Notes under the pieces: model-generated
Database searches by the model: none
Seen by the model: the letters and a program-made list of their open reading frames with translations, nothing else
What the model was told of the DNA's origin: nothing
Sequence record: MZ502379.1
DNA: 64,000 bases
Source of the DNA: Escherichia phage vB_EcoM_Shinka
Reading direction: 5' to 3' (one strand)
Shown: one piece after another, positions 2,448 through 53,549 of the stretch
How the letters are laid out: every line of letters starts with the position of its first letter
How positions within the stretch are numbered: position 1 is the first letter of the stretch
Position numbers and translations under genes: made by a program

Positions 2448-4267
2448 TACTGGCTCATCCATTCTTTACGAAGGTCAGCATTATCTCCCATGAGCATTTC
2501 AAAAAGCTCTTTCCAGTTCTCAGGAAGTTTAACAACATCATATACTGGGTTTTGAATCATCTCACGATATTCAGATTTTTCCAAAGAGCCAAGTCCTTTA
2601 ATATAACGGATGCTATGTTTAGGTAGAGCATCTTTGGCACTCTCATATTCAGCGACTGTATAAAACCATTCTTGTTTTTTACCGACCTGAGCGATGATTA
2701 CAGGAGTTTTGACAAAGCGAATTCGTCCTTGCTCAAACAATTCTGGCCAATTACTAAAAAACCCGAGCAGAGAAGGATAAATGCTTCCTAGGCCATCATG
2801 GTCAGCATCAGTCATAATAGCGATATTATGATAATTCAAGTTTTCAGCTTTTTCACCGAGAACTAATCCAGTGATTGCGCAAATATCAAATAGTTCTTTG
2901 TTTTTAAGCATATCTGCATAAGACATACCCCAACTGTTGAGAACTTTACCGCGCAATGGATAACCACCGTGAAGTTCTTTATCACGAACATCAATAAGAT
3001 ATCCGATAGCCGAATCACCCTCAGTCAAGAAAAGAGTAGTGTCAGCATCTTTACCACAAAGATTCGCTTTGATATGTTTATGAACCTTAGCTTTAGAAGC
3101 CTTTTTAGCTGCTTTAGTTTCTGCTGCTTTTTCTGCCGCCAATTTACGAGCCAAAGCAGCTTCAATAATCGGCATTAGAATTGCTTCATTATTCAAAATA
3201 GCACGTGAAATCTTTTTAGCATCAAGTTGAATATGACTACGAATTTCGCCAAATGGAGAAGTCAAACGCTCTTTAGTTTGAGAATCAAATCGCATGTTTT
3301 TCATATCACGAACAAACATAACGATTGTCAAACATTCTTTAACGCGTGCTTTAGTCACATCAATTTTGAACTTACGTTTGATTTGTGGAATAAGGTCTTC
3401 ACAAATATCATCCATAACACAGTCAATGTGATGGCCACCATTCTTAGTATGAATGTTATTAACGTATGTTAATTGACGAAAACCATCCGGTGAACGACCA
3501 ACTGCAATAGAACAGTTTTCTTGTTCTTGAACGATAGCATGCTCATCATATTGGCGTGCATATTTCTTAAAATTGCCCTGAACCTTTTTACCATTAAAGG
3601 TAAATTGAATATCAGGATAAACAACAGCAAGTGTCTGGAGACGATCTAATGTAATGTCAAGATAAACTTGAGATAATTCATTAGTTTCAAATGACATAAA
3701 ATCTGGAATGAAAGTAACACGAGTTCCTTTCCATTTTCCAGGAATAGTTTCCCATGATTTATTTTCCATGCCATTTGAACAACGAACTACAATATTATTT
3801 TGACCATCACCAGTTTCACCGACAAACATCACAGAAAAAATGTTTGTCAAACTAGAACCAACACCATTCATACCGCCAGTGACGCGTTCTTTATCATCAC
3901 CGAAGTTACCACCTGCTTTTGGAATAGTCCATGCAGCAACAGGACCAGGAATTTCTTCACCGGTAGGTGTTTTAACCATCGCCTGCGGAATACCACGACC
4001 GTTATCTTCAACTGTTACTTGATTGTTTTTAATAGTAACATTAATTTTATTTGCGAATTTAAACTTAGTACGAATACCTTCATCTACTGAGTTATCGATA
4101 ATTTCATCAATAAGCTTAACAAGACCAGGTACATACTGAACACTTTCCCATTTACCAAACAGAAAGCGCTCATGCATTTCATTAGCAGAAGAGCCAATAT
4201 ACATGCCACTACGCTTTTTGATATGCTCAATATCGCTCAGAATTTTAATTTCATTCTTAATCATCAC
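2447..4267 (-). CDS. 39: DNA topoisomerase II large subunit, GyrB-like ATPase plus Toprim, with the gene-60 segment fused in frame (606 aa)
   Basis: N-terminal GHKL ATPase region; C-terminal 115 aa (NIAIMTDADHDGLGSIYPS...KEWMSQ) correspond to T4 gp60; one uninterrupted ORF. Confidence 0.93.
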   Translation of the reverse strand: MMIKNEIKILSDIEHIKKRSGMYIGSSANEMHERFLFGKWESVQYVPGLVKLIDEIIDNSVDEGIRTKFKFANKINVTIKNNQVTVEDNGRGIPQAMVKTPTGEEIPGPVAAWTIPKAGGNFGDDKERVTGGMNGVGSSLTNIFSVMFVGETGDGQNNIVVRCSNGMENKSWETIPGKWKGTRVTFIPDFMSFETNELSQVYLDITLDRLQTLAVVYPDIQFTFNGKKVQGNFKKYARQYDEHAIVQEQENCSIAVGRSPDGFRQLTYVNNIHTKNGGHHIDCVMDDICEDLIPQIKRKFKIDVTKARVKECLTIVMFVRDMKNMRFDSQTKERLTSPFGEIRSHIQLDAKKISRAILNNEAILMPIIEAALARKLAAEKAAETKAAKKASKAKVHKHIKANLCGKDADTTLFLTEGDSAIGYLIDVRDKELHGGYPLRGKVLNSWGMSYADMLKNKELFDICAITGLVLGEKAENLNYHNIAIMTDADHDGLGSIYPSLLGFFSNWPELFEQGRIRFVKTPVIIAQVGKKQEWFYTVAEYESAKDALPKHSIRYIKGLGSLEKSEYREMIQNPVYDVVKLPENWKELFEMLMGDNADLRKEWMSQ

Positions 4268-4291
4268 TTATCCTCGTTTGGTTTCGGGAAT

Positions 4292-4317
4292 ATTATACTC
4301 CGGTAATCATAAAGCTA
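4292..4317 (-). promoter_or_regulatory. candidate MotA-dependent middle promoter for gene 39
   Basis: Minus strand reads tTAGCTTTA (MotA-box-like), 12 nt, TATAAT, upstream of the gene 39 start. Confidence 0.35.
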
Positions 4318-4334
4318 AAGGCCCGAAGGCCTTT
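4317..4334 (-). terminator. stable hairpin with UUCG tetraloop (terminator/mRNA stabiliser)
   Basis: aaaggcc-cgaa-ggccttt on plus strand (7-bp stem); loop is UUCG on the mRNA strand; U-rich flank. Confidence 0.55.
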
Positions 4335-4603
4335 TATTTAAAACGAATAGTTGAATCCTTAAAGAACAGCCCAGAACATACTGTTCCTTCTACTTTCTGC
4401 CCGGTAGGTCCAATAGCACGAAATCCAGTATGCTGGAAATCATTTTCAGAGCAACCGAACCAGTTATATCCAGTGATTTCAATATTAGTAAACCCACTTG
4501 AAGACAAAACTTTGGTTGCATTATCAGCATCAGTACATCCTACTAAAGATACTGCTAATACTAATGCCGCGATAGAACGATTAACATATTTCATAATTTT
4601 CAC
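4334..4603 (-). CDS. small lipoprotein-like protein (89 aa)
   Basis: N-terminal signal peptide with lipobox-like LVGC; in the 39.1/39.2 region. Confidence 0.6.
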   Translation of the reverse strand: MKIMKYVNRSIAALVLAVSLVGCTDADNATKVLSSSGFTNIEITGYNWFGCSENDFQHTGFRAIGPTGQKVEGTVCSGLFFKDSTIRFK

Positions 4604-6447: not shown

Positions 6448-6520
6448 AATTATCTCTCACTTGTTAAAAAGATTTTATACTCCACAGGACCATTATACTC
6501 TGGTCCCAAGAGTTTGTAAA

Positions 6521-7069
6521 CTAGCTTACACGAACATTAATCACTGCGCTACGAGGAACTACAGAGTATTCTCCAGCATGAACTACGTTCAGAAGTTCAA
6601 CGCCATCTTCAATCCACTGGTCTGTTACCCAACCACAGATAGGATTATCAAAAGGACGACGGATAGACACAGCAGCACACAACAGGTCTGTAGGGTCTTG
6701 TTCTTCAACTTCTTGGAACAGGATGAACTCATCTTCATAAACCAGGTTTTTCTTTATTTTGTTATTATCTAACCGGCGACCGTGGATGACGTAAGATTTG
6801 TCAAACCACTCACTTTTGGCAAATTCTTCAACAATAAATTCGCCTTCGCCAAAAACATCAGTCAGAGTTTTATGACCAGAAATCAAGGCATTAGTTTTAA
6901 TTTTAGGTTCAACCAGTTTGTAGGTTTTGCCGATTTCAATAGCGGTAGTCATAGTAGGTTCCTTAATTTCCAGTGGTTTAACAGGGCATACATAAGTGCT
7001 TACAACATCAAAATCAATCAGTTTAGCTACCGGATTTGGTATGTATTCAGGATTATAATTAAATTTCAT
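6521..7069 (-). CDS. MotB paralog (182 aa) sharing the C-terminal domain
   Basis: C-terminus ...CGWVTDQWIEDGVELLNVVHAGEYSVVP aligns with ...CAYITDQWVEDGVKLYNAVFLGTYKVIP of the previous ORF. Confidence 0.6.
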   Translation of the reverse strand: MKFNYNPEYIPNPVAKLIDFDVVSTYVCPVKPLEIKEPTMTTAIEIGKTYKLVEPKIKTNALISGHKTLTDVFGEGEFIVEEFAKSEWFDKSYVIHGRRLDNNKIKKNLVYEDEFILFQEVEEQDPTDLLCAAVSIRRPFDNPICGWVTDQWIEDGVELLNVVHAGEYSVVPRSAVINVRVS

Positions 7070-7071
7070 AA

Positions 7072-7572
7072 TTATCTCATTTCAATAAAATCTACGAGTT
7101 CAGCATGCGATTTGCGGAACATTACTTGGTGCCCACCAATGATAACTTCATCTTCAGGAACTTCGTATACAGCGAGATAAAATCCTTTAGAAGATAATTC
7201 TTCCCGCTCTTCTCGTGTGAACCATCTCATCATATCATATTCACTAGCGAAAGCAAAATGATAAAGACCTATAAACCATCCTGGAATATGATATTCTACT
7301 CCAACATAATCTTTCTTGAACTTAGTATTAATTACTATATTAGCGTTTTTAACTAATAGTTTATCTTCGTGTGGTAAAGGAATTCTTTTATTATTATCGC
7401 TATGATGCATAAAATTAGGTCTGTCATAACCTACGTGTAATAGCCACTCTTCGCTCAATGAATCTATTATACTCCTGTACGGCGTTATTTGAACACAAAG
7501 ATTTCGACGTATTGTTATAGCATCTTCATAATCAAGAATACTAAACGATGATTCAACACGATAAATTTTCAT
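7072..7572 (-). CDS. hypothetical protein (start corrected to MKIYRVESS, about 166 aa)
   Basis: The track ORF extends into the promoter at 7600-7629; internal ATG preceded by GAGGA is the likely start. Confidence 0.55.
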   Translation of the reverse strand: MKIYRVESSFSILDYEDAITIRRNLCVQITPYRSIIDSLSEEWLLHVGYDRPNFMHHSDNNKRIPLPHEDKLLVKNANIVINTKFKKDYVGVEYHIPGWFIGLYHFAFASEYDMMRWFTREEREELSSKGFYLAVYEVPEDEVIIGGHQVMFRKSHAELVDFIEMR

Positions 7573-45705: not shown

Positions 45706-45982
45706 TTAAGTCATTTATCGTTGGTTCATTATATACTGTTTCTTCATCAGTGTAAACCGGTTCTTCCGGCTCTGGCTCTACAGTTTCCCATCTAGCCGCC
45801 CACCAAGGTTTAACCCCGAAGCTTATTAAGTTCTTCATAATCAATCCAGGATTCTAATCCTGATGGCAAATCAGATTCAATTTCCCAAAGAAGCTCTTCA
45901 ATTTTCTGAAGACGATCTAGTTCTTCGGCTGGAATAGTAACCATTGACGGAGTTCTTGATACATTAATATCGTAAATCATAT

Positions 45983-46198
45983 TTACCCCAATTTAACCAT
46001 ACAATCGCCGTATTTCCACTTAGAAATAGACTTTTCACCATTAGAATAATAAACTTCGAGTTTAGCACGATTATTTTTAATTTGAATAACCTTGGCTGTC
46101 ATCAAAGTTCCATACCCATAGTAAACTGCAACTTCATCACCTACATATACCGCGCTTCCGCGGTAATCATGAATATAGTCAGTTCCTTCGAGCATCAT
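45983..46198 (-). CDS. hypothetical protein (71 aa)
   Basis: ORF overlapping the nrdC stop. Confidence 0.5.
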   Translation of the reverse strand: MMLEGTDYIHDYRGSAVYVGDEVAVYYGYGTLMTAKVIQIKNNRAKLEVYYSNGEKSISKWKYGDCMVKLG

Positions 46199-46458
46199 TT
46201 AAAATATTCTCGCAGTTGGTCAAATCCACCAATATGACTTCCATCAGGAGCAAATACCTGGGGCATTGTCAAGCCGATTTGAGTATCACGACCTAGTTTA
46301 GTCAGAAGCTCAGCAATTTTCTCATCATCAAAAACACCTTTTTCCGGCATAATGTTGATAAATTCAAACGGCTGTTTCTTCACGGTCAAAAGACGTTTTG
46401 CATTATCGCAATACACACATTTATGAATGTTGCTATCATAACCATATACTTTAAACAT
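46195..46458 (-). CDS. nrdC: thioredoxin/glutaredoxin NrdC (87 aa)
   Basis: CVYC redox motif; 87 aa as T4 NrdC. Confidence 0.9.
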   Translation of the reverse strand: MFKVYGYDSNIHKCVYCDNAKRLLTVKKQPFEFINIMPEKGVFDDEKIAELLTKLGRDTQIGLTMPQVFAPDGSHIGGFDQLREYFK

Positions 46459-46704: not shown

Positions 46705-47094
46705 TTAATCCAAAATATTATTAGGCATTGGTTGAACACTCACAAGTTCTTTAAAGAACTCAGTAGAGTCAGGCAATTTAACCATTTCCGGAGCATGCTT
46801 ACTGAATTTATGTTTACATTGACGGCATTTATATTCAAGCTCTGGTTTACGCCAGTTAATCAATTGAACTTGTTCAGTACCGCATTCAGGGCAATTAGGA
46901 ACGTTTTTAGAAGCTCTTTCACGTCGTTCAACCATAGCCATAATAGCATCCCATGCTGGAGGTTTAAAATCTAAATCGTCGCAGCCGTGAATCTTTCCAC
47001 GCATTTCCATATCATCTTCCTCACCAGCCATAATAATTTTAATTAAACTGGAATTACTTGAAGCTGCAATGTCTTCTAATAAACGCTTTTTCAT
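46705..47094 (-). CDS. zinc-ribbon protein (129 aa)
   Basis: CPECG...CRQCKHKF. Confidence 0.55.
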
Positions 47095-48017
47095 TTCAAT
47101 ACCTCAATAGCATTACGTAAACCATTTGCTTTGGCGGTTAAAGCCTTAAGAACTTTAGTATGCTCTTCAATCTGTTTTTCAACTTCAATCAAACGGGCAC
47201 TGAGATATTCGCGTTCTTCTTTCATAGTATCATTTCCATGATTGGATTTTGGGGTAGGTTTAAATTCACTAGGGTCCTTTAATTTAATAACAAATTTAGT
47301 TTCAAACAGCGAAAGACCATAATTCGTATTATCATCAAAGGATTTGACTACATCCATATCAGATAATAACACGCGTAAATTATAAGCCAAAGAACTAATA
47401 GTTTCATTGTGTTTATTAGCTTCGCGTGGTTTCATATACGGAAGATTTTTATATATCTCGTGCGGAGCACAAATGATAATTGACAATTCAAATTGCCCAT
47501 TCTGGGACGATGGAGTGAATTTAGCCGTAACCCAGTCTTTTACATTCACATTAATAGTACGGTTATCACCATGACAAAACAGTCTACGAGAATGCTTAAA
47601 AAGCATATTCACGTTATTATTGAATTCGTGTGAAAATTCACTAGCAAATTTTTCTTTACTATCTTTAGAAAACCATTCTTCTAAATAAGTTCTTTTCACG
47701 TCGTTAATAATATTAAATGTAACAACACTAGCATTTGATACATTAGTCTCAATGTAGCTTGGATACATAAATTTTTTAACATTATTAACAGCTATCACAG
47801 AAGATAGTAATCGGGAACGTTTGAACCACTCGAGCAAAGAACCAAGAGAATGTGAATACGCATTTTGTGTATCTTTACAAATATGGTTTTCCCATCCAAT
47901 ATAGTCTAAAAAATCACGAAGAATATTATTGATTACTGCTCTGTGTCCTATCTGATAATTACGATGTTTAGTAATAAGACTGTCAAAATAATCAATATAA
48001 TGTTTACGAGTTTTCAT
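47091..48017 (-). CDS. hypothetical protein with C-terminal coiled coil (308 aa); member of a tandem paralog array
   Basis: Starts MKTRKHY; shared architecture with the next two ORFs. Confidence 0.6.
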   Translation of the reverse strand: MKTRKHYIDYFDSLITKHRNYQIGHRAVINNILRDFLDYIGWENHICKDTQNAYSHSLGSLLEWFKRSRLLSSVIAVNNVKKFMYPSYIETNVSNASVVTFNIINDVKRTYLEEWFSKDSKEKFASEFSHEFNNNVNMLFKHSRRLFCHGDNRTINVNVKDWVTAKFTPSSQNGQFELSIIICAPHEIYKNLPYMKPREANKHNETISSLAYNLRVLLSDMDVVKSFDDNTNYGLSLFETKFVIKLKDPSEFKPTPKSNHGNDTMKEEREYLSARLIEVEKQIEEHTKVLKALTAKANGLRNAIEVLK

Positions 48018-48069
48018 GTTCTTCTCACTTGGTTAATGATTTATACTCCGAGCCATCCTTGGCTTTAAA

Positions 48070-49071
48070 TTACTTAATTAACTGTAAAGCTTGTTCCAGA
48101 CGATCAAGACGATTAACAGATTCTTCCCAAATCCTTTTAGCCTGCTCATATTCTTTCTGCGCTTTATTAGAAATTTCTAGAACTTCTTTATAAGCTTTTT
48201 CTAGTGCAATAACTTCTGGACGAATTTCTATCGGTTCAGGTGAATCATCAAGACATTCCATTAGTTCCTCAAGGGTAGTTTCTTCTTTAGGAGTATTCAC
48301 AATTTCATCACATTTTTGTTGGTAAATTTCTTTATCAGTAGGTGAATAAGCACATTTCACTTCACGAAGGCTAATTACGAGTTTATATCCTTCCCAACCG
48401 CATATATTCTTAAAAGGATATGTATGAATATTTTCTACTGTTTCCATACAAAGTAATGCGGTCTCTAATTGACGAGTTATAGTGCTAGCAATTGAGAAAA
48501 ATTTATTAATATTCTTTTGGTTAGTTTCTGGTGTAAAAAATCCATAATTCACAAAAATAGATACTTTATTTTTATCAAGTTCATATTCTTTTATGATAAT
48601 CATATCAGAAGCCAAAGGATGAATTTGACGATAATCGCCATAACATAATTTAGAAGCTGATTTTAGAATTTGTTTCTTAAAAAGTCTGAAATTACTGATC
48701 CAACGACGAGTAAAAATATTCTCAGGGTCTTCTTTAATATTAAGATGATAAGAATTAACATCACCGAACCAATTGTATCCTACTACATCTTTAGTTCGTT
48801 TAATTTCTTTCCCAAAATTACCAAGAATATCCCGATTAACCAAATATGAAAGAAGACGAGACTCTTTAAAGGTTTTCTTGATAACATCTTTATCTACACG
48901 GCTAGAAATTTTACGAATTTCATGAATAAATTTAGTAGAAGAAACAATACTTGCATCAACACTATTGAGCCATTGATTGATAATAGAAAGAACGCTATTT
49001 TGGCCAAACATCGGTATAGCTTTATCATCAATAACGCTATTGAATGATTTGATATATTCGTTACGAGTCAT
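48070..49071 (-). CDS. hypothetical protein with C-terminal coiled coil (start corrected to MTRNEY, 333 aa)
   Basis: The track N-terminus runs through the promoter at 49100-49129; GAGGAG SD precedes the internal ATG. Confidence 0.6.
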   Translation of the reverse strand: MTRNEYIKSFNSVIDDKAIPMFGQNSVLSIINQWLNSVDASIVSSTKFIHEIRKISSRVDKDVIKKTFKESRLLSYLVNRDILGNFGKEIKRTKDVVGYNWFGDVNSYHLNIKEDPENIFTRRWISNFRLFKKQILKSASKLCYGDYRQIHPLASDMIIIKEYELDKNKVSIFVNYGFFTPETNQKNINKFFSIASTITRQLETALLCMETVENIHTYPFKNICGWEGYKLVISLREVKCAYSPTDKEIYQQKCDEIVNTPKEETTLEELMECLDDSPEPIEIRPEVIALEKAYKEVLEISNKAQKEYEQAKRIWEESVNRLDRLEQALQLIK

Positions 49072-49099
49072 AATAATCTCCTCAGTAGAAAGTAAAAAC

Positions 49100-49129
49100 A
49101 TTATACCACATCCTTGTGGCAAAGTAAAC
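49100..49129 (-). promoter_or_regulatory. T4-type early promoter (near-copy of 2418-2447)
   Basis: Minus strand GTTTAC-tttgccacaaggatgtgg-TATAAT. Confidence 0.7.
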
Positions 49130-50157
49130 TAGTTCAGTGCATTTAGTGCATTGTTCAGTTTAGAACGTTGCTTTGTCAGATTTTGAACCCTTGACTGAGC
49201 TTGTTCTAACGCCTTTTCAGCTTCTAGCATTTCATTGGTCGCTTTAACGAGTTCATCATCTACTGCCTTAAGAGACTTTTCAATCGCATCAGCGTGCCAT
49301 TTTTCTACAGGTTTAAAATTTGAATTTTCAGTAGGAAGAAAACTCACTTTATTAAGTTTACATGCATCTATGTTACTTGAACTGTACATCCAACATTTAG
49401 GATCGTTTGATAAGTAATTGGATAAATTTAAATTTAAGGTATCTTGCACTTCCTGCTTTTTCTCTTGAACAATTTCATCCTTTCTCAAAAATTCATATTT
49501 AAATGAAACGATCATATCAAGTTCATATGTTGTTGTATGTTCCCAATTTCGCTCAAAACGAGGTAAAATCTTAGATTGAACAGCAGCAACAACATCCATA
49601 TACTTAAATGCTTCTGTCAGCTGTGATTTAAGACATTCACAAATTGAAAGAGAATTTTTAGTATTAGGCTTAAAGCTAATTCGTGCAGTTCTATTATTTT
49701 CTTTTAACGGTCTTACTTCCATCTGAAGAGTATAACCATCAAATTTCAGGTTCTTTAAGTTAATGTCAGAACCTTTTAATCGACTAGCCGTCGACAAAAT
49801 TTGCTTTAATTGTCTACGGAACAGAGCAATAAATCTCCATTCAATTCGATAATGATTTGGATTGAAAAATCCAGATGATAAATCGACCTTACTTTGACCA
49901 ACGCCTTGAACAATCAAAGGATTTTTATAATCAATAGTTTTACAGAAATCGGTGAGCTGTTCACGAGCAGTCATTTGTGTAATATACCCTGCTTTACTAA
50001 AATTACGCACCCATTCACTGCTATTCGTATACTTAAAGTGATGAATAACACGATTAACTTTATCAGGGTCTAAATTATTTTCACACAAAAATGTCATAAC
50101 ATCACGAGTATAGCTGGCATTACGAACCATATCTTCAATTTGAGAACGAGTTTTCAT
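49129..50157 (-). CDS. hypothetical protein with C-terminal coiled coil (342 aa); paralog array member
   Basis: Starts MKTRSQIEDM. Confidence 0.6.
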   Translation of the reverse strand: MKTRSQIEDMVRNASYTRDVMTFLCENNLDPDKVNRVIHHFKYTNSSEWVRNFSKAGYITQMTAREQLTDFCKTIDYKNPLIVQGVGQSKVDLSSGFFNPNHYRIEWRFIALFRRQLKQILSTASRLKGSDINLKNLKFDGYTLQMEVRPLKENNRTARISFKPNTKNSLSICECLKSQLTEAFKYMDVVAAVQSKILPRFERNWEHTTTYELDMIVSFKYEFLRKDEIVQEKKQEVQDTLNLNLSNYLSNDPKCWMYSSSNIDACKLNKVSFLPTENSNFKPVEKWHADAIEKSLKAVDDELVKATNEMLEAEKALEQAQSRVQNLTKQRSKLNNALNALN

Positions 50158-50165
50158 GGTGTTCC

Positions 50166-51068
50166 TTAAGATTTAAGTAAATCAACGATTTTAATTAATT
50201 TTTCACGCTCAGATTTAGCTTTACTACTCAATCCAGATAGTCTGAAAATTTCATCATCATATTGCTGAATAGAAATATTTAGCTCTTCAATCTGCTTATT
50301 AAAATAAGCAATTTGTTCAGAATGTTTTTCATTACTGCGAACTGGTACAGGTTTTGTAGGTAATTTAGATGAACTGGATTCATCCGGGCGATAAATTAAA
50401 ATACAACTTGAACCAATCGGACATTTAGCACCAGATGAATATTCTAATGTTCCAGCTTCTTTTAAAACTTCAAAAGCTAAACAGAGATGATGCCCCATAT
50501 TGACATAATCTGTAGAGTGAGCTCTGATGTAATAATCATCTCCACGAGTACTAAATTTAAAGCATTTAAGGTCTTCTGTATTATTGGTCTTAAAAATCAT
50601 TTGTTTATCTAGACCTTTAGCTAATCGAGCGCCTAATGCTAATAATCGTCGTTGATTTTCCCACAAATCCGCAATCATTTGGTCAAATGATAATTTCGGC
50701 ATTAGTCGACCATAAAGGTCATATCCTTTATTATAATTGCGAAGGATTTCACTCGCATTAATACGAGACAACGCTCCAATTTTATTAAGGGCTTTCATGA
50801 TGCGATTAGATAAACCCATTCCAGATCCGTTTGTTCGTTGCAAATGTTTATCTAATCCAAACCCAATATCAACTTTAAATTTATCTAAAATTTCAGCATG
50901 AACATCTCTGTCAATAACATTCAAATCCAAAGTTGGGTTAAATCTATGAAAAAATTTATCTGGCTCTCCACGACGAAGTACAGTCCATTCATTTAATTTT
51001 TTATTAACTAAAGATTTAATTACTGCATTGACATTATTAATTACTACTGACATATTTTTCTCACTCAA
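50166..51068 (-). CDS. hypothetical protein with C-terminal coiled coil (300 aa)
   Basis: nrdC.x-region ORF. Confidence 0.55.
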   Translation of the reverse strand: MSEKNMSVVINNVNAVIKSLVNKKLNEWTVLRRGEPDKFFHRFNPTLDLNVIDRDVHAEILDKFKVDIGFGLDKHLQRTNGSGMGLSNRIMKALNKIGALSRINASEILRNYNKGYDLYGRLMPKLSFDQMIADLWENQRRLLALGARLAKGLDKQMIFKTNNTEDLKCFKFSTRGDDYYIRAHSTDYVNMGHHLCLAFEVLKEAGTLEYSSGAKCPIGSSCILIYRPDESSSSKLPTKPVPVRSNEKHSEQIAYFNKQIEELNISIQQYDDEIFRLSGLSSKAKSEREKLIKIVDLLKS

Positions 51069-51524: not shown

Positions 51525-52052
51525 TTATGCGAGTACCGTCTTTAACCGTTCTTCAAACTTCCGAAGAGTATTTTGGCGTTCAGCTCTTTGCTTTTTGTAA
51601 GTTTCAATACGCTCTGAAATGAGAGTGTATCGTTCATTTACTGATTCTTTCATAAAATCAGGAATTTCACGAGAAGCTTTAATCTCGTCAAATTTATCAA
51701 TAACTGCTTGCTCTTCAGCAATTAAGTTATCATACATCAAAATATCTTTCTTGATGAACTCAATATCTTCTTGAGTTACACGAGATAATTTAGATGCTTT
51801 ATCCTTTTTGTACTGTTCGTTAGTATCACGAGACCAGTGTAATGTACGATTTTTATTCGTATTCTTGTAAATTTCTACAATACCAATCTCATCGATAATA
51901 ACGATCCAATTCCAACGAGATTTGTAAATTTGTCCTCCGTCAACCGTGATTTCACCTCCGATTGAGATGTCATTAAAGAACTTGCTTTGTGCTTCAGATT
52001 TAAATTTACCATCGTTGTAATTTACCAGGTTGAAAATATCTTTAGCGTTCAT
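51525..52052 (-). CDS. hypothetical protein with C-terminal coiled coil (175 aa)
   Basis: ORF with GGAGG SD downstream of the promoter at 52081-52110. Confidence 0.55.
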   Translation of the reverse strand: MNAKDIFNLVNYNDGKFKSEAQSKFFNDISIGGEITVDGGQIYKSRWNWIVIIDEIGIVEIYKNTNKNRTLHWSRDTNEQYKKDKASKLSRVTQEDIEFIKKDILMYDNLIAEEQAVIDKFDEIKASREIPDFMKESVNERYTLISERIETYKKQRAERQNTLRKFEERLKTVLA

Positions 52053-52516: not shown

Positions 52517-52822
52517 TTATTTCAGAAGAGTAACCTCAGCGATTTCTTCCCAACCGTTTTTGTCGGTCATAATAAAGTCAGCAAGATAAAGAGCAGTACG
52601 CAGTGAAACATTGCGTAAACGATTAACATTGACTTTCATCCATGATAATGCTTTATAAGTTTCTTCATCAGAAAGACCGCGTTTTTGCATCATGTCAGTT
52701 GAAAGAATAACATCTTCAACCCTGACCATAATTTCTTCATTAGTGTGAACACCCAAATCCAAATAAACTGAGCGGGACACTAATGCTTGTAAATGTGGAG
52801 CAAGTTTAGTACCACAGCTCAA
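52517..52822 (-). CDS. hypothetical protein (start uncertain)
   Basis: The track start is probably a non-ATG codon inside the promoter-like sequence; an internal Met (MVRVEDV) is a plausible start. Confidence 0.4.
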   Translation of the reverse strand: MSCGTKLAPHLQALVSRSVYLDLGVHTNEEIMVRVEDVILSTDMMQKRGLSDEETYKALSWMKVNVNRLRNVSLRTALYLADFIMTDKNGWEEIAEVTLLK

Positions 52823-52872: not shown

Positions 52873-53259
52873 TTATTCGAGGGAAAGAAGATACTTACTC
52901 TGGTAAAACATTCCAGTAATATCATCTATCGTGCTTTGGATGGCTGGAGGCATTTCTTTATAAATGCTGTTAGATTGGTCTAGTATGCGATCAATCATTT
53001 TAATTGTGTCGGTAGGAAGTTTACTGGCATCTGGAATTGAAGGTGTGTATTTTCTACCAGAATACCCCAAATATTGCTCACCAAATTTATCAATCAAATC
53101 TGGCAACTCGGAGAAAATAAAATCGTATGCTTTGTGTCTAGCATAACTTTTAGTTTCAAAATGTGCAGAATGAAAATAAGCTTGTGCAGCCATTAATAAA
53201 CCTAAGTATTCATCTGCCTTTGAAGGTTTTCCACTTTGTGAAAAGTCGCTGAATTTCAT
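52873..53259 (-). CDS. hypothetical protein (128 aa)
   Basis: ORF immediately upstream of rI. Confidence 0.5.
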   Translation of the reverse strand: MKFSDFSQSGKPSKADEYLGLLMAAQAYFHSAHFETKSYARHKAYDFIFSELPDLIDKFGEQYLGYSGRKYTPSIPDASKLPTDTIKMIDRILDQSNSIYKEMPPAIQSTIDDITGMFYQSKYLLSLE

Positions 53260-53549
53260 TCAGTCTCCAATTTAATGTTCATAATTCTAGCGTATGATTG
53301 TGCCATCTCCGCGCCTCGCTCTATACATTCAAAATCAGAAGAGCACGGGTCATTTTTATAGGTCGTTCTCATAAAACTATAGAATTGTTCAGACGATTCT
53401 ACGCTTTTATTTTCAAAAAGCATATAAACGTGCCTAATACCAGATTCCATAAATTTATCAAAATGAGGATCGACATTCGCTTCAATCGATGGAGATAAAA
53501 CAAATGACAATCCTAGCATGGCAAATAGTGCCGTTGCTTTTAAGGCCAT
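53256..53549 (-). CDS. rI: lysis inhibition regulator RI (97 aa)
   Basis: N-terminal signal-anchor MALKATALFAMLGLSFVLSPSIEA; 97 aa as T4 RI. Confidence 0.88.
   Translation of the reverse strand: MALKATALFAMLGLSFVLSPSIEANVDPHFDKFMESGIRHVYMLFENKSVESSEQFYSFMRTTYKNDPCSSDFECIERGAEMAQSYARIMNIKLETE

Follow-up and report, generated by a model that had tools for sequence, protein, structure and literature searches.

Evidence for an ancient tandem family of coiled-coil-tailed proteins, including the ortholog of the T4 anti-Dsr1 gene nrdC.5, between nrdC and rI of a Tequatrovirus

Are neighbouring phage genes whose products share a similar size and a C-terminal coiled coil the diverged copies of one ancestor, and does a function published for one of them extend to the others? 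The question is raised by Escherichia phage vB_EcoM_Shinka (sequence record MZ502379.1), of which we analysed a stretch of 64,000 nucleotides (nt; the window), and in particular by its array of four open reading frames (ORFs), nrdC.3 to nrdC.6. An earlier note on this DNA had described the four as tandem diverged paralogs in an accessory region, three of them with similar N-termini and all with C-terminal coiled coils, and had regarded such an array as typical of host-range or anti-defence functions under diversifying selection. Comparisons of sequence profiles and predicted structures support the view that nrdC.3–nrdC.6 are ancient, strongly diverged tandem paralogs of a single protein superfamily.

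The window derives from a Tequatrovirus, and the array lies on the minus strand between nrdC (46195–46458) and rI (53256–53549). ORF positions and the nrdC–rI location had been given correctly in the earlier note. The 3,978-bp interval is matched in 506 phage records, the top match being Escherichia phage vB_EcoM_JB75 (99.6%; RB32, 96.8%), and gene names were taken from the RB32 and T4 annotations. The four genes, with product lengths in amino acids (aa) and expectation values (E) of family matches, are as follows:

47091–48017, minus strand: nrdC.3, 308 aa, paralog A; ORF matching phrog_1435 (E 6e-101)
48070–49071, minus strand: nrdC.4, 333 aa, paralog B; ORF with a GAGGAG Shine-Dalgarno sequence, matching phrog_1435 (E 6e-168), homologs labelled PF26897
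49129–50157, minus strand: nrdC.5, 342 aa, paralog C; Pfam DUF7235 (E 2.4e-120), 93.6% identical to T4 nrdC.5, structure modelled
50166–51053, minus strand: nrdC.6, 295 aa, paralog D; phrog_2257 (E 2e-152), homologs labelled PF26899, structure modelled, linked to the others by hhalign and Foldseek

Two of the starts required a decision. The Shine-Dalgarno sequence of nrdC.4 precedes an ATG at 49071, which yields 333 aa; a 350-aa version in the program's ORF list, beginning with TTG at 49122, was discarded because that start sits within a promoter. Similarly, a 300-aa nrdC.6 would need a TTG at 51068; relatives use the ATG at 51053, which yields 295 aa. The sizes given earlier are therefore right for three products (308, 333 and 342 aa) and too large for the fourth.

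Protein family databases divide these genes among three families of unknown function, which they treat as unrelated (Pfam PF23882, PF26897 and PF26899; PHROGs 2351, 1435 and 2257). A Pfam scan of the four proteins recognises nrdC.5 only, which matches PF23882 (DUF7235) over profile positions 1–307 of 307 with 402 bits (gathering threshold 30). The labels PF26897 (nrdC.3/nrdC.4) and PF26899 (nrdC.6) are precomputed and stand on database homologs at 90–98% identity; a natural nrdC.5::nrdC.3 chimera described below carries such a label as well. PHROGs groups nrdC.3 and nrdC.4, both of which cover profile positions 1–334, in family 1435, and assigns nrdC.5 to 2351 and nrdC.6 to 2257.

Pairwise BLASTP among the four proteins detects a single pair, nrdC.3 and nrdC.4 (23% over 173 aa, E 0.002). 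Profile comparison with hhalign assigns nrdC.3 to the nrdC.4 family with Prob 99% and E 4e-17 and, in local mode, relates nrdC.5 to nrdC.4 with Prob 82% and E 1e-5 in a colinear alignment of aa 50–195 with aa 65–217, about 130 columns. For the latter comparison, the nrdC.5 profile had been widened with three distant members and a 300-aa relative from RB69; its score of 44.9 compares with a maximum of 19.9 among 25 column shuffles, a control that covered this comparison, the local one of nrdC.5 with nrdC.3 and that of nrdC.6 with a merged profile. Motifs common to the alignments are an M(K)TR N-terminus, a W..FR...IL.SASRL helix, QL..AL..M.TV and a terminal L..AL.LLK. A repeat search found no similarity above chance between the paralogs at the DNA level, and the duplications are therefore old, with no recent duplication or gene conversion.

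The position of nrdC.6 needed separate consideration, because its length and tail might be convergent, in which case the array would consist of three paralogs and an unrelated neighbour. Compared by hhalign with the nrdC.3, nrdC.4 and nrdC.5 families singly, nrdC.6 gave non-significant results (best E 0.002–0.005, Prob 7–14%), the M(K)TR motif is absent from its N-terminus and its C-terminus is modelled as a hairpin rather than one helix. Compared with a merged nrdC.3/4/5 profile, however, nrdC.6 aligned over 135 colinear columns with Prob 83% and E 9.6e-6, and the matching region lies in the N-terminal half, outside the coil; the score of 46.7 is far above those of 25 column shuffles (at most 21.7) and of the reversed alignment (15.3). 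The predicted structures point in the same direction. We searched AlphaFold monomer models of nrdC.5 (predicted local distance difference test score, pLDDT, 70) and nrdC.6 (pLDDT 77) against BFVD with Foldseek. The nrdC.5 model matches nrdC.6 of phage JS10 directly (E 1.8e-4, prob 1.0), and six proteins of about 304–374 aa, from Erwinia phage Cronus, Klebsiella phage Mineola, Pectobacterium phage PM2, Yersinia phage fHe-Yen9-01, Acinetobacter phage Acj61 and Citrobacter phage Merlin, are matched by both models (E 4e-7 to 6e-4). Both models also present their secondary structure elements in the same order: N-terminal helical domain, long helix, beta-beta-alpha-beta-beta sandwich, disordered linker and C-terminal helices. 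We accordingly regard an unrelated nrdC.6 as improbable and its membership in the superfamily as highly probable; that of nrdC.3, nrdC.4 and nrdC.5 is more secure still.

Two observations count against so inclusive a superfamily. Compared directly in local mode, nrdC.5 and nrdC.3 did not score above their shuffle control, and this link is therefore transitive via nrdC.4. For nrdC.6, the link depends on E values between about 1e-5 and 1e-4 and on models at pLDDT 70–77, and in the same-fold comparison, which covered the nrdC.5 and nrdC.6 models, template modelling (TM) scores are low (0.3–0.45), presumably owing to flexible linkers between the domains. Taken together, formal alignment does detect mutual similarity within the array, by BLASTP for nrdC.3 and nrdC.4 and otherwise by profiles and structure, and the tandem diverged paralogs proposed in the earlier note are borne out, nrdC.6 by way of the merged profile and Foldseek on the nrdC.5 and nrdC.6 models. 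All four genes were annotated long ago, and a role for one of them is published; the novelty lies in joining three database families into one superfamily through profile and fold comparison, which gives reason to unite these “unknown function” entries of Pfam and PHROGs.

The models show a common predicted domain plan, consisting of a variable N-terminal helical domain, a conserved long helix, a two-layer sandwich, a disordered and partly acidic linker and a conserved C-terminal coiled coil. To locate the coil in all four proteins, we scored heptads in 28-residue windows by counting hydrophobic residues at the a and d positions and subtracting those at other positions as well as Pro and Gly, with 200 shuffles per protein. 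The best window is C-terminal in four of four proteins (aa 270–305 in nrdC.3, from aa 289 in nrdC.4, aa 285–342 in nrdC.5 and from aa 250 in nrdC.6), and the fraction of shuffles attaining the real score is 0.01, 0.005, 0 and 0.05, respectively. The flanking nrdC.2 and nrdC.7 score no higher than their shuffle means. The segments are:

47094–47225, minus strand: nrdC.3 C-terminal coiled-coil segment, about aa 265–308; column conservation 0.86 against 0.78 elsewhere
48073–48219, minus strand: nrdC.4 C-terminal coiled-coil segment, about aa 285–333, containing WEESTNRLDRLEQALELLK
49132–49302, minus strand: nrdC.5 C-terminal coiled-coil helix, aa 286–342; heptad score 0.90, attained in 0 of 200 shuffles; one helix in the model
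50169–50330, minus strand: nrdC.6 C-terminal helical hairpin, aa 242–295; helices 242–271 and 277–294 in the model

The C-terminal coiled coils of the earlier note are thus recovered in each protein by the heptad maximum and, for nrdC.5 and nrdC.6, as helices in the models, a single 56-residue helix (286–341) in the former and the hairpin in the latter. The tails are conserved as well: WEESTNRLDRLEQALELLK is nearly invariant among nrdC.4 homologs that share just 40–50% overall identity, the nrdC.6 motif DDEIFRL...AK.ER...LLK is invariant or almost so throughout its family, and column conservation amounts to 0.69–0.86 in the coils against 0.64–0.78 in the remainder, with the coil never below the remainder of its own protein. 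Indels between families in the C-terminal helix sum to a net seven residues, which is one heptad. The similar N-termini noted for three ORFs are real: nrdC.3 and nrdC.5 begin with MKTR and nrdC.4 with MTR (nrdC.6 begins with MSVV), and M1, T3 and R4 are invariant in 24 sequences of the nrdC.3, nrdC.4 and nrdC.5 families. Nearby, nrdC.8 (51525–52052, minus strand, 175 aa) has a long charged helical C-terminus with a weak, non-significant heptad peak (shuffle fraction 0.23) and, in contrast to the four paralogs, is strongly conserved (83% identical in RB69).

The published role concerns nrdC.5. A T4 deletion clone fails on strain ECOR17 owing to dsr1, and plasmid-borne T4 nrdC.5 restores plating of the deletion mutant on MG1655 with dsr1 (Srikant et al, 2022; PMC9391042). 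Judged by its sequence and context, the window ORF at 49129–50157 is the ortholog of this anti-Dsr1 gene, as it shares with it 93.6% identity across 342 aa, the Pfam family DUF7235, the gene order nrdC.6–nrdC.5–nrdC.4 and the neighbouring genes. The paper reports the phenotype, with no domain analysis, mechanism or paralogs; the placement in a superfamily comes from the present analysis. An anti-defence role is hence established for T4 nrdC.5 only, and we infer it for nrdC.3, nrdC.4 and nrdC.6.

None of the four proteins has a catalytic domain: searches of Pfam, NCBIfam and PADLOC returned nothing significant of a catalytic kind, and a sequence search of PDB found no solved relative, the hits in both cases being coiled-coil noise only. 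Three known types of protein were considered and set aside. Enzymes that reconstitute nicotinamide adenine dinucleotide (NAD+), as in NARP1/NARP2-type escape from SIR2, have recognisable enzyme domains, which were not found; no family match or strong fold match combined with a place in the late structural module connects the four with tail terminator or completion proteins of the lambda gpU or SPP1 gp17 type; and similarity to DSAD1 in sequence or fold was likewise not found.

Expression was approached through promoters. The window contains eight matches to GTTTAC-N16-19-TANAAT, where 0.38 would be expected; every one lies on the minus strand, and one belongs to the array:

49100–49129, minus strand: T4 early-promoter consensus GTTTACTTTGCCACAAGGATGTGGTATAAT upstream of nrdC.4, identified by sequence reading and pattern match

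A scan for generic sigma-70 promoters and terminators showed no enrichment, unlike the T4-specific early consensus. Srikant et al (PMC9391042) class nrdC.5 as an early gene, and nrdC.3–nrdC.6 belong at least in part to the early genes. The site at 49100–49129 and another at 2418–2447, also on the minus strand, differ by one base over 30 nt.

We consider it fairly probable that nrdC.3–nrdC.6 encode early, non-enzymatic, oligomeric coiled-coil proteins that bind host immune proteins, with one target per paralog. Binding would be stoichiometric, an oligomer held together through the C-terminal coil capturing the immune protein ahead of its triggering; the target of nrdC.5 would be Dsr1, a protein of SIR2 and tetratricopeptide repeat (TPR) domains, to which it may bind directly, and the remaining paralogs would have other targets. 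The TPR sensor of Dsr1 reportedly recognises major capsid proteins (preprint PMC12803255). In favour of the proposal, the neighbourhood contains further counter-defence genes, pin and gp49.2, the latter directed against OLD (PMC13096335). The working analogy is DSAD1, an SPbeta-type phage inhibitor of DSR2, which neutralises a SIR2 NADase defence protein without being an enzyme.

Several points weigh against this proposal. The phenotype is known for one of the four genes, and for the T4 allele rather than that of the window; binding of nrdC.5 to Dsr1 is argued solely by analogy with DSAD1 and DSR2; a literature search returned no later paper on the mechanism of nrdC.5 and none on nrdC.3, nrdC.4 or nrdC.6; through the coil the protein is probably a dimer or a higher oligomer, and the modelling covered monomers; and substitution rates within Tequatrovirus carry no sign of an arms race. 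Since shared ancestry is silent on role, nrdC.5 might be the sole counter-defence gene of the array and the others might act elsewhere in host takeover, on RNA polymerase, the nucleoid or the cell envelope. We consider such a division unlikely. Another alternative assigns to the central domain the part of a decoy, which would mimic a virion protein and fill the sensor domain of an immune protein that reads a late structural protein. We hold the decoy to be very unlikely. The reading that we retain as the most economical is that of stoichiometric binders of host immune proteins.

The ratio of nonsynonymous to synonymous substitution rates (dN/dS) was calculated gene-wide in pairwise comparisons with T4, RB32, HY01 and one metagenomic relative. 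The values are 0.03–0.27 for nrdC.3–nrdC.5 and 0.06–0.12 for nrdC.6, against 0–0.06 for gp49, nrdC and nrdC.8. The four paralogs are thus under purifying selection, looser than that on gp49, nrdC and nrdC.8, and no gene-wide positive selection was seen in these comparisons. The earlier assignment to host-range or anti-defence functions under diversifying selection accordingly divides: the anti-defence part stands for nrdC.5, whose T4 ortholog counters Dsr1 (PMC9391042), and diversifying selection finds no support in the gene-wide dN/dS of 0.03–0.27 and in coils that are no less conserved than the rest.

Whole alleles appear to be exchanged. Those of nrdC.3 fall into two classes in Tequatrovirus, 139 records with at least 80% amino acid identity (137 with more than 90%) and several hundred near 60%. 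In the comparison with HY01 (compared locus 6501–7430), nrdC.3 shows a dS of 1.17 against 0.09–0.3 for adjacent genes, and this difference points to allele replacement through recombination. The zinc ribbon gene nrdC.2 (46705–47094, minus strand), which encodes 129 aa here and 104 aa in T4, shares only 78–83% identity with its counterparts in T4, RB32, HY01 and ACG-C40, at a dS of 0.8–1.0, and is therefore a further replaced allele.

In the sampled Straboviridae the family adjoins nrdC; distant genera have one copy of it and coliphage genera two to four. Four copies are present in T4, RB32, HY01 and this window, three each in RB69 and JS98, two in ESCO47, and one plus an nrdC.5'/nrdC.3' remnant in ACG-C40. 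The distant genera, represented by CF1, Roth34, Muldoon and Octan, have one ORF of 324–371 aa with a coiled-coil tail shortly upstream of nrdC, and in GEC-3S no family ORF was found at nrdC. This variation in copy number among relatives bears out the description as an accessory region. In CF1, Roth34, Muldoon and Octan, the single-copy genes are out of reach of the hidden Markov models (HMMs) of the four families, and single-sequence hhalign gave weak colinear hints only (best E 2e-4); in the Moonvirus CF1, the gene adjoining nrdC shares 95% identity with a Merlin gene equal in length to the Merlin structure match. As nrdC itself is 74% identical between the window and CF1, yet the adjoining family is past the range of BLAST, the family must diverge rapidly between genera. 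A HMMER scan with the nrdC.5 profile of 1.84 billion representative proteins retrieved 13 proteins only and no bridge to an annotated family, and a search with nrdC.3 for related loci retrieved two loci only.

Recombination has also reshaped the array itself. A natural in-frame chimera fuses nrdC.5 (from aa 146) to nrdC.3 (from aa 136), and in ACG-C40 (compared locus 6802–7213) the nrdC.5'/nrdC.3' remnant is kept and nrdC.4 is gone; copy number has therefore been altered by inter-paralog recombination. Single genes show further rearrangements. The nrdC.6 of Shigella phage Sf25 (378 aa) carries an internal tandem duplication of ~249 nt spanning the beta-alpha-beta part and the linker. A 173-aa protein on an 803-bp metagenome contig joins the nrdC.5 coil to an N-terminus unmatched in the window and may reflect domain shuffling or an assembly chimera. 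In the T4 reference (AF158101, about 4250–4365 of the compared locus) nrdC.6 is frameshifted within the coiled coil and annotated with 275 aa, and its +2 frame goes on with ISIQQYDDEIFRLSGLSSKAKSEREKLIKIVDLLKS, as in the window; the frameshift is either a mutation of the laboratory strain or a sequencing error.

A wider and more tentative proposal sees in the slot adjoining nrdC, across several Straboviridae genera, a single family of immune antagonists with coiled-coil tails that diverges fast and can expand, and in which every paralog acts against a different host sensor or effector. We regard this as possible, though well short of probable. If true, nrdC.3, nrdC.4 and nrdC.6 would encode three anti-defence proteins not yet described; specificity would lie in the variable N-terminal domain, and the coil would give avidity by fitting the oligomeric state of its target. 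The architecture would then be a general scaffold from which new inhibitors arise via duplication and inter-paralog exchange, as in the nrdC.5::nrdC.3 chimera.

Known anti-defence clusters of T-even phages, such as the dmd-tifA-adfA “anti-TA island” (toxin–antitoxin; PMC9391042) and the anti-OLD gene gp49.2 beside nrdC (PMC13096335), are likewise composed of small, clustered, variable accessory early genes directed against one defence each. They hold unrelated genes, whereas the nrdC.3–nrdC.6 cluster is a paralog family expanded in place with a common coiled-coil tail. Phage anti-defence proteins have mostly been discovered singly; here, the published anti-Dsr1 gene has three adjoining paralogs, which are concrete anti-defence candidates in phages with existing genetic tools. 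Single-copy relatives occur in T4-like phages of Klebsiella, Citrobacter, Serratia and Acinetobacter, and structure matches in Erwinia, Pectobacterium and Yersinia phages. The domain map offers a basis for asking how Dsr1 is blocked and, if the paralogs hit different systems, the locus would exemplify how tandem duplication diversifies immune antagonists in a bacterial virus.

Lastly, the surroundings of the array differ from those in T4 at two places. At the position of T4 49.2/49.3, the window has two small ORFs of 56 and 71 aa without T4 counterpart (45810–46198, minus strand). The gp49.2 of T6 inhibits OLD (PMC13096335), and the phage studied here may lack this inhibitor or have a different one. 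Beyond the array, nrdC.10 is reduced to its last ~95 residues (52538–52822, minus strand; T4 aa 222–316, 98% identical), and the 5' part of nrdC.10, nrdC.11 and the mobD block are absent compared with T4, which indicates a deletion between nrdC.9 and rI.-1.

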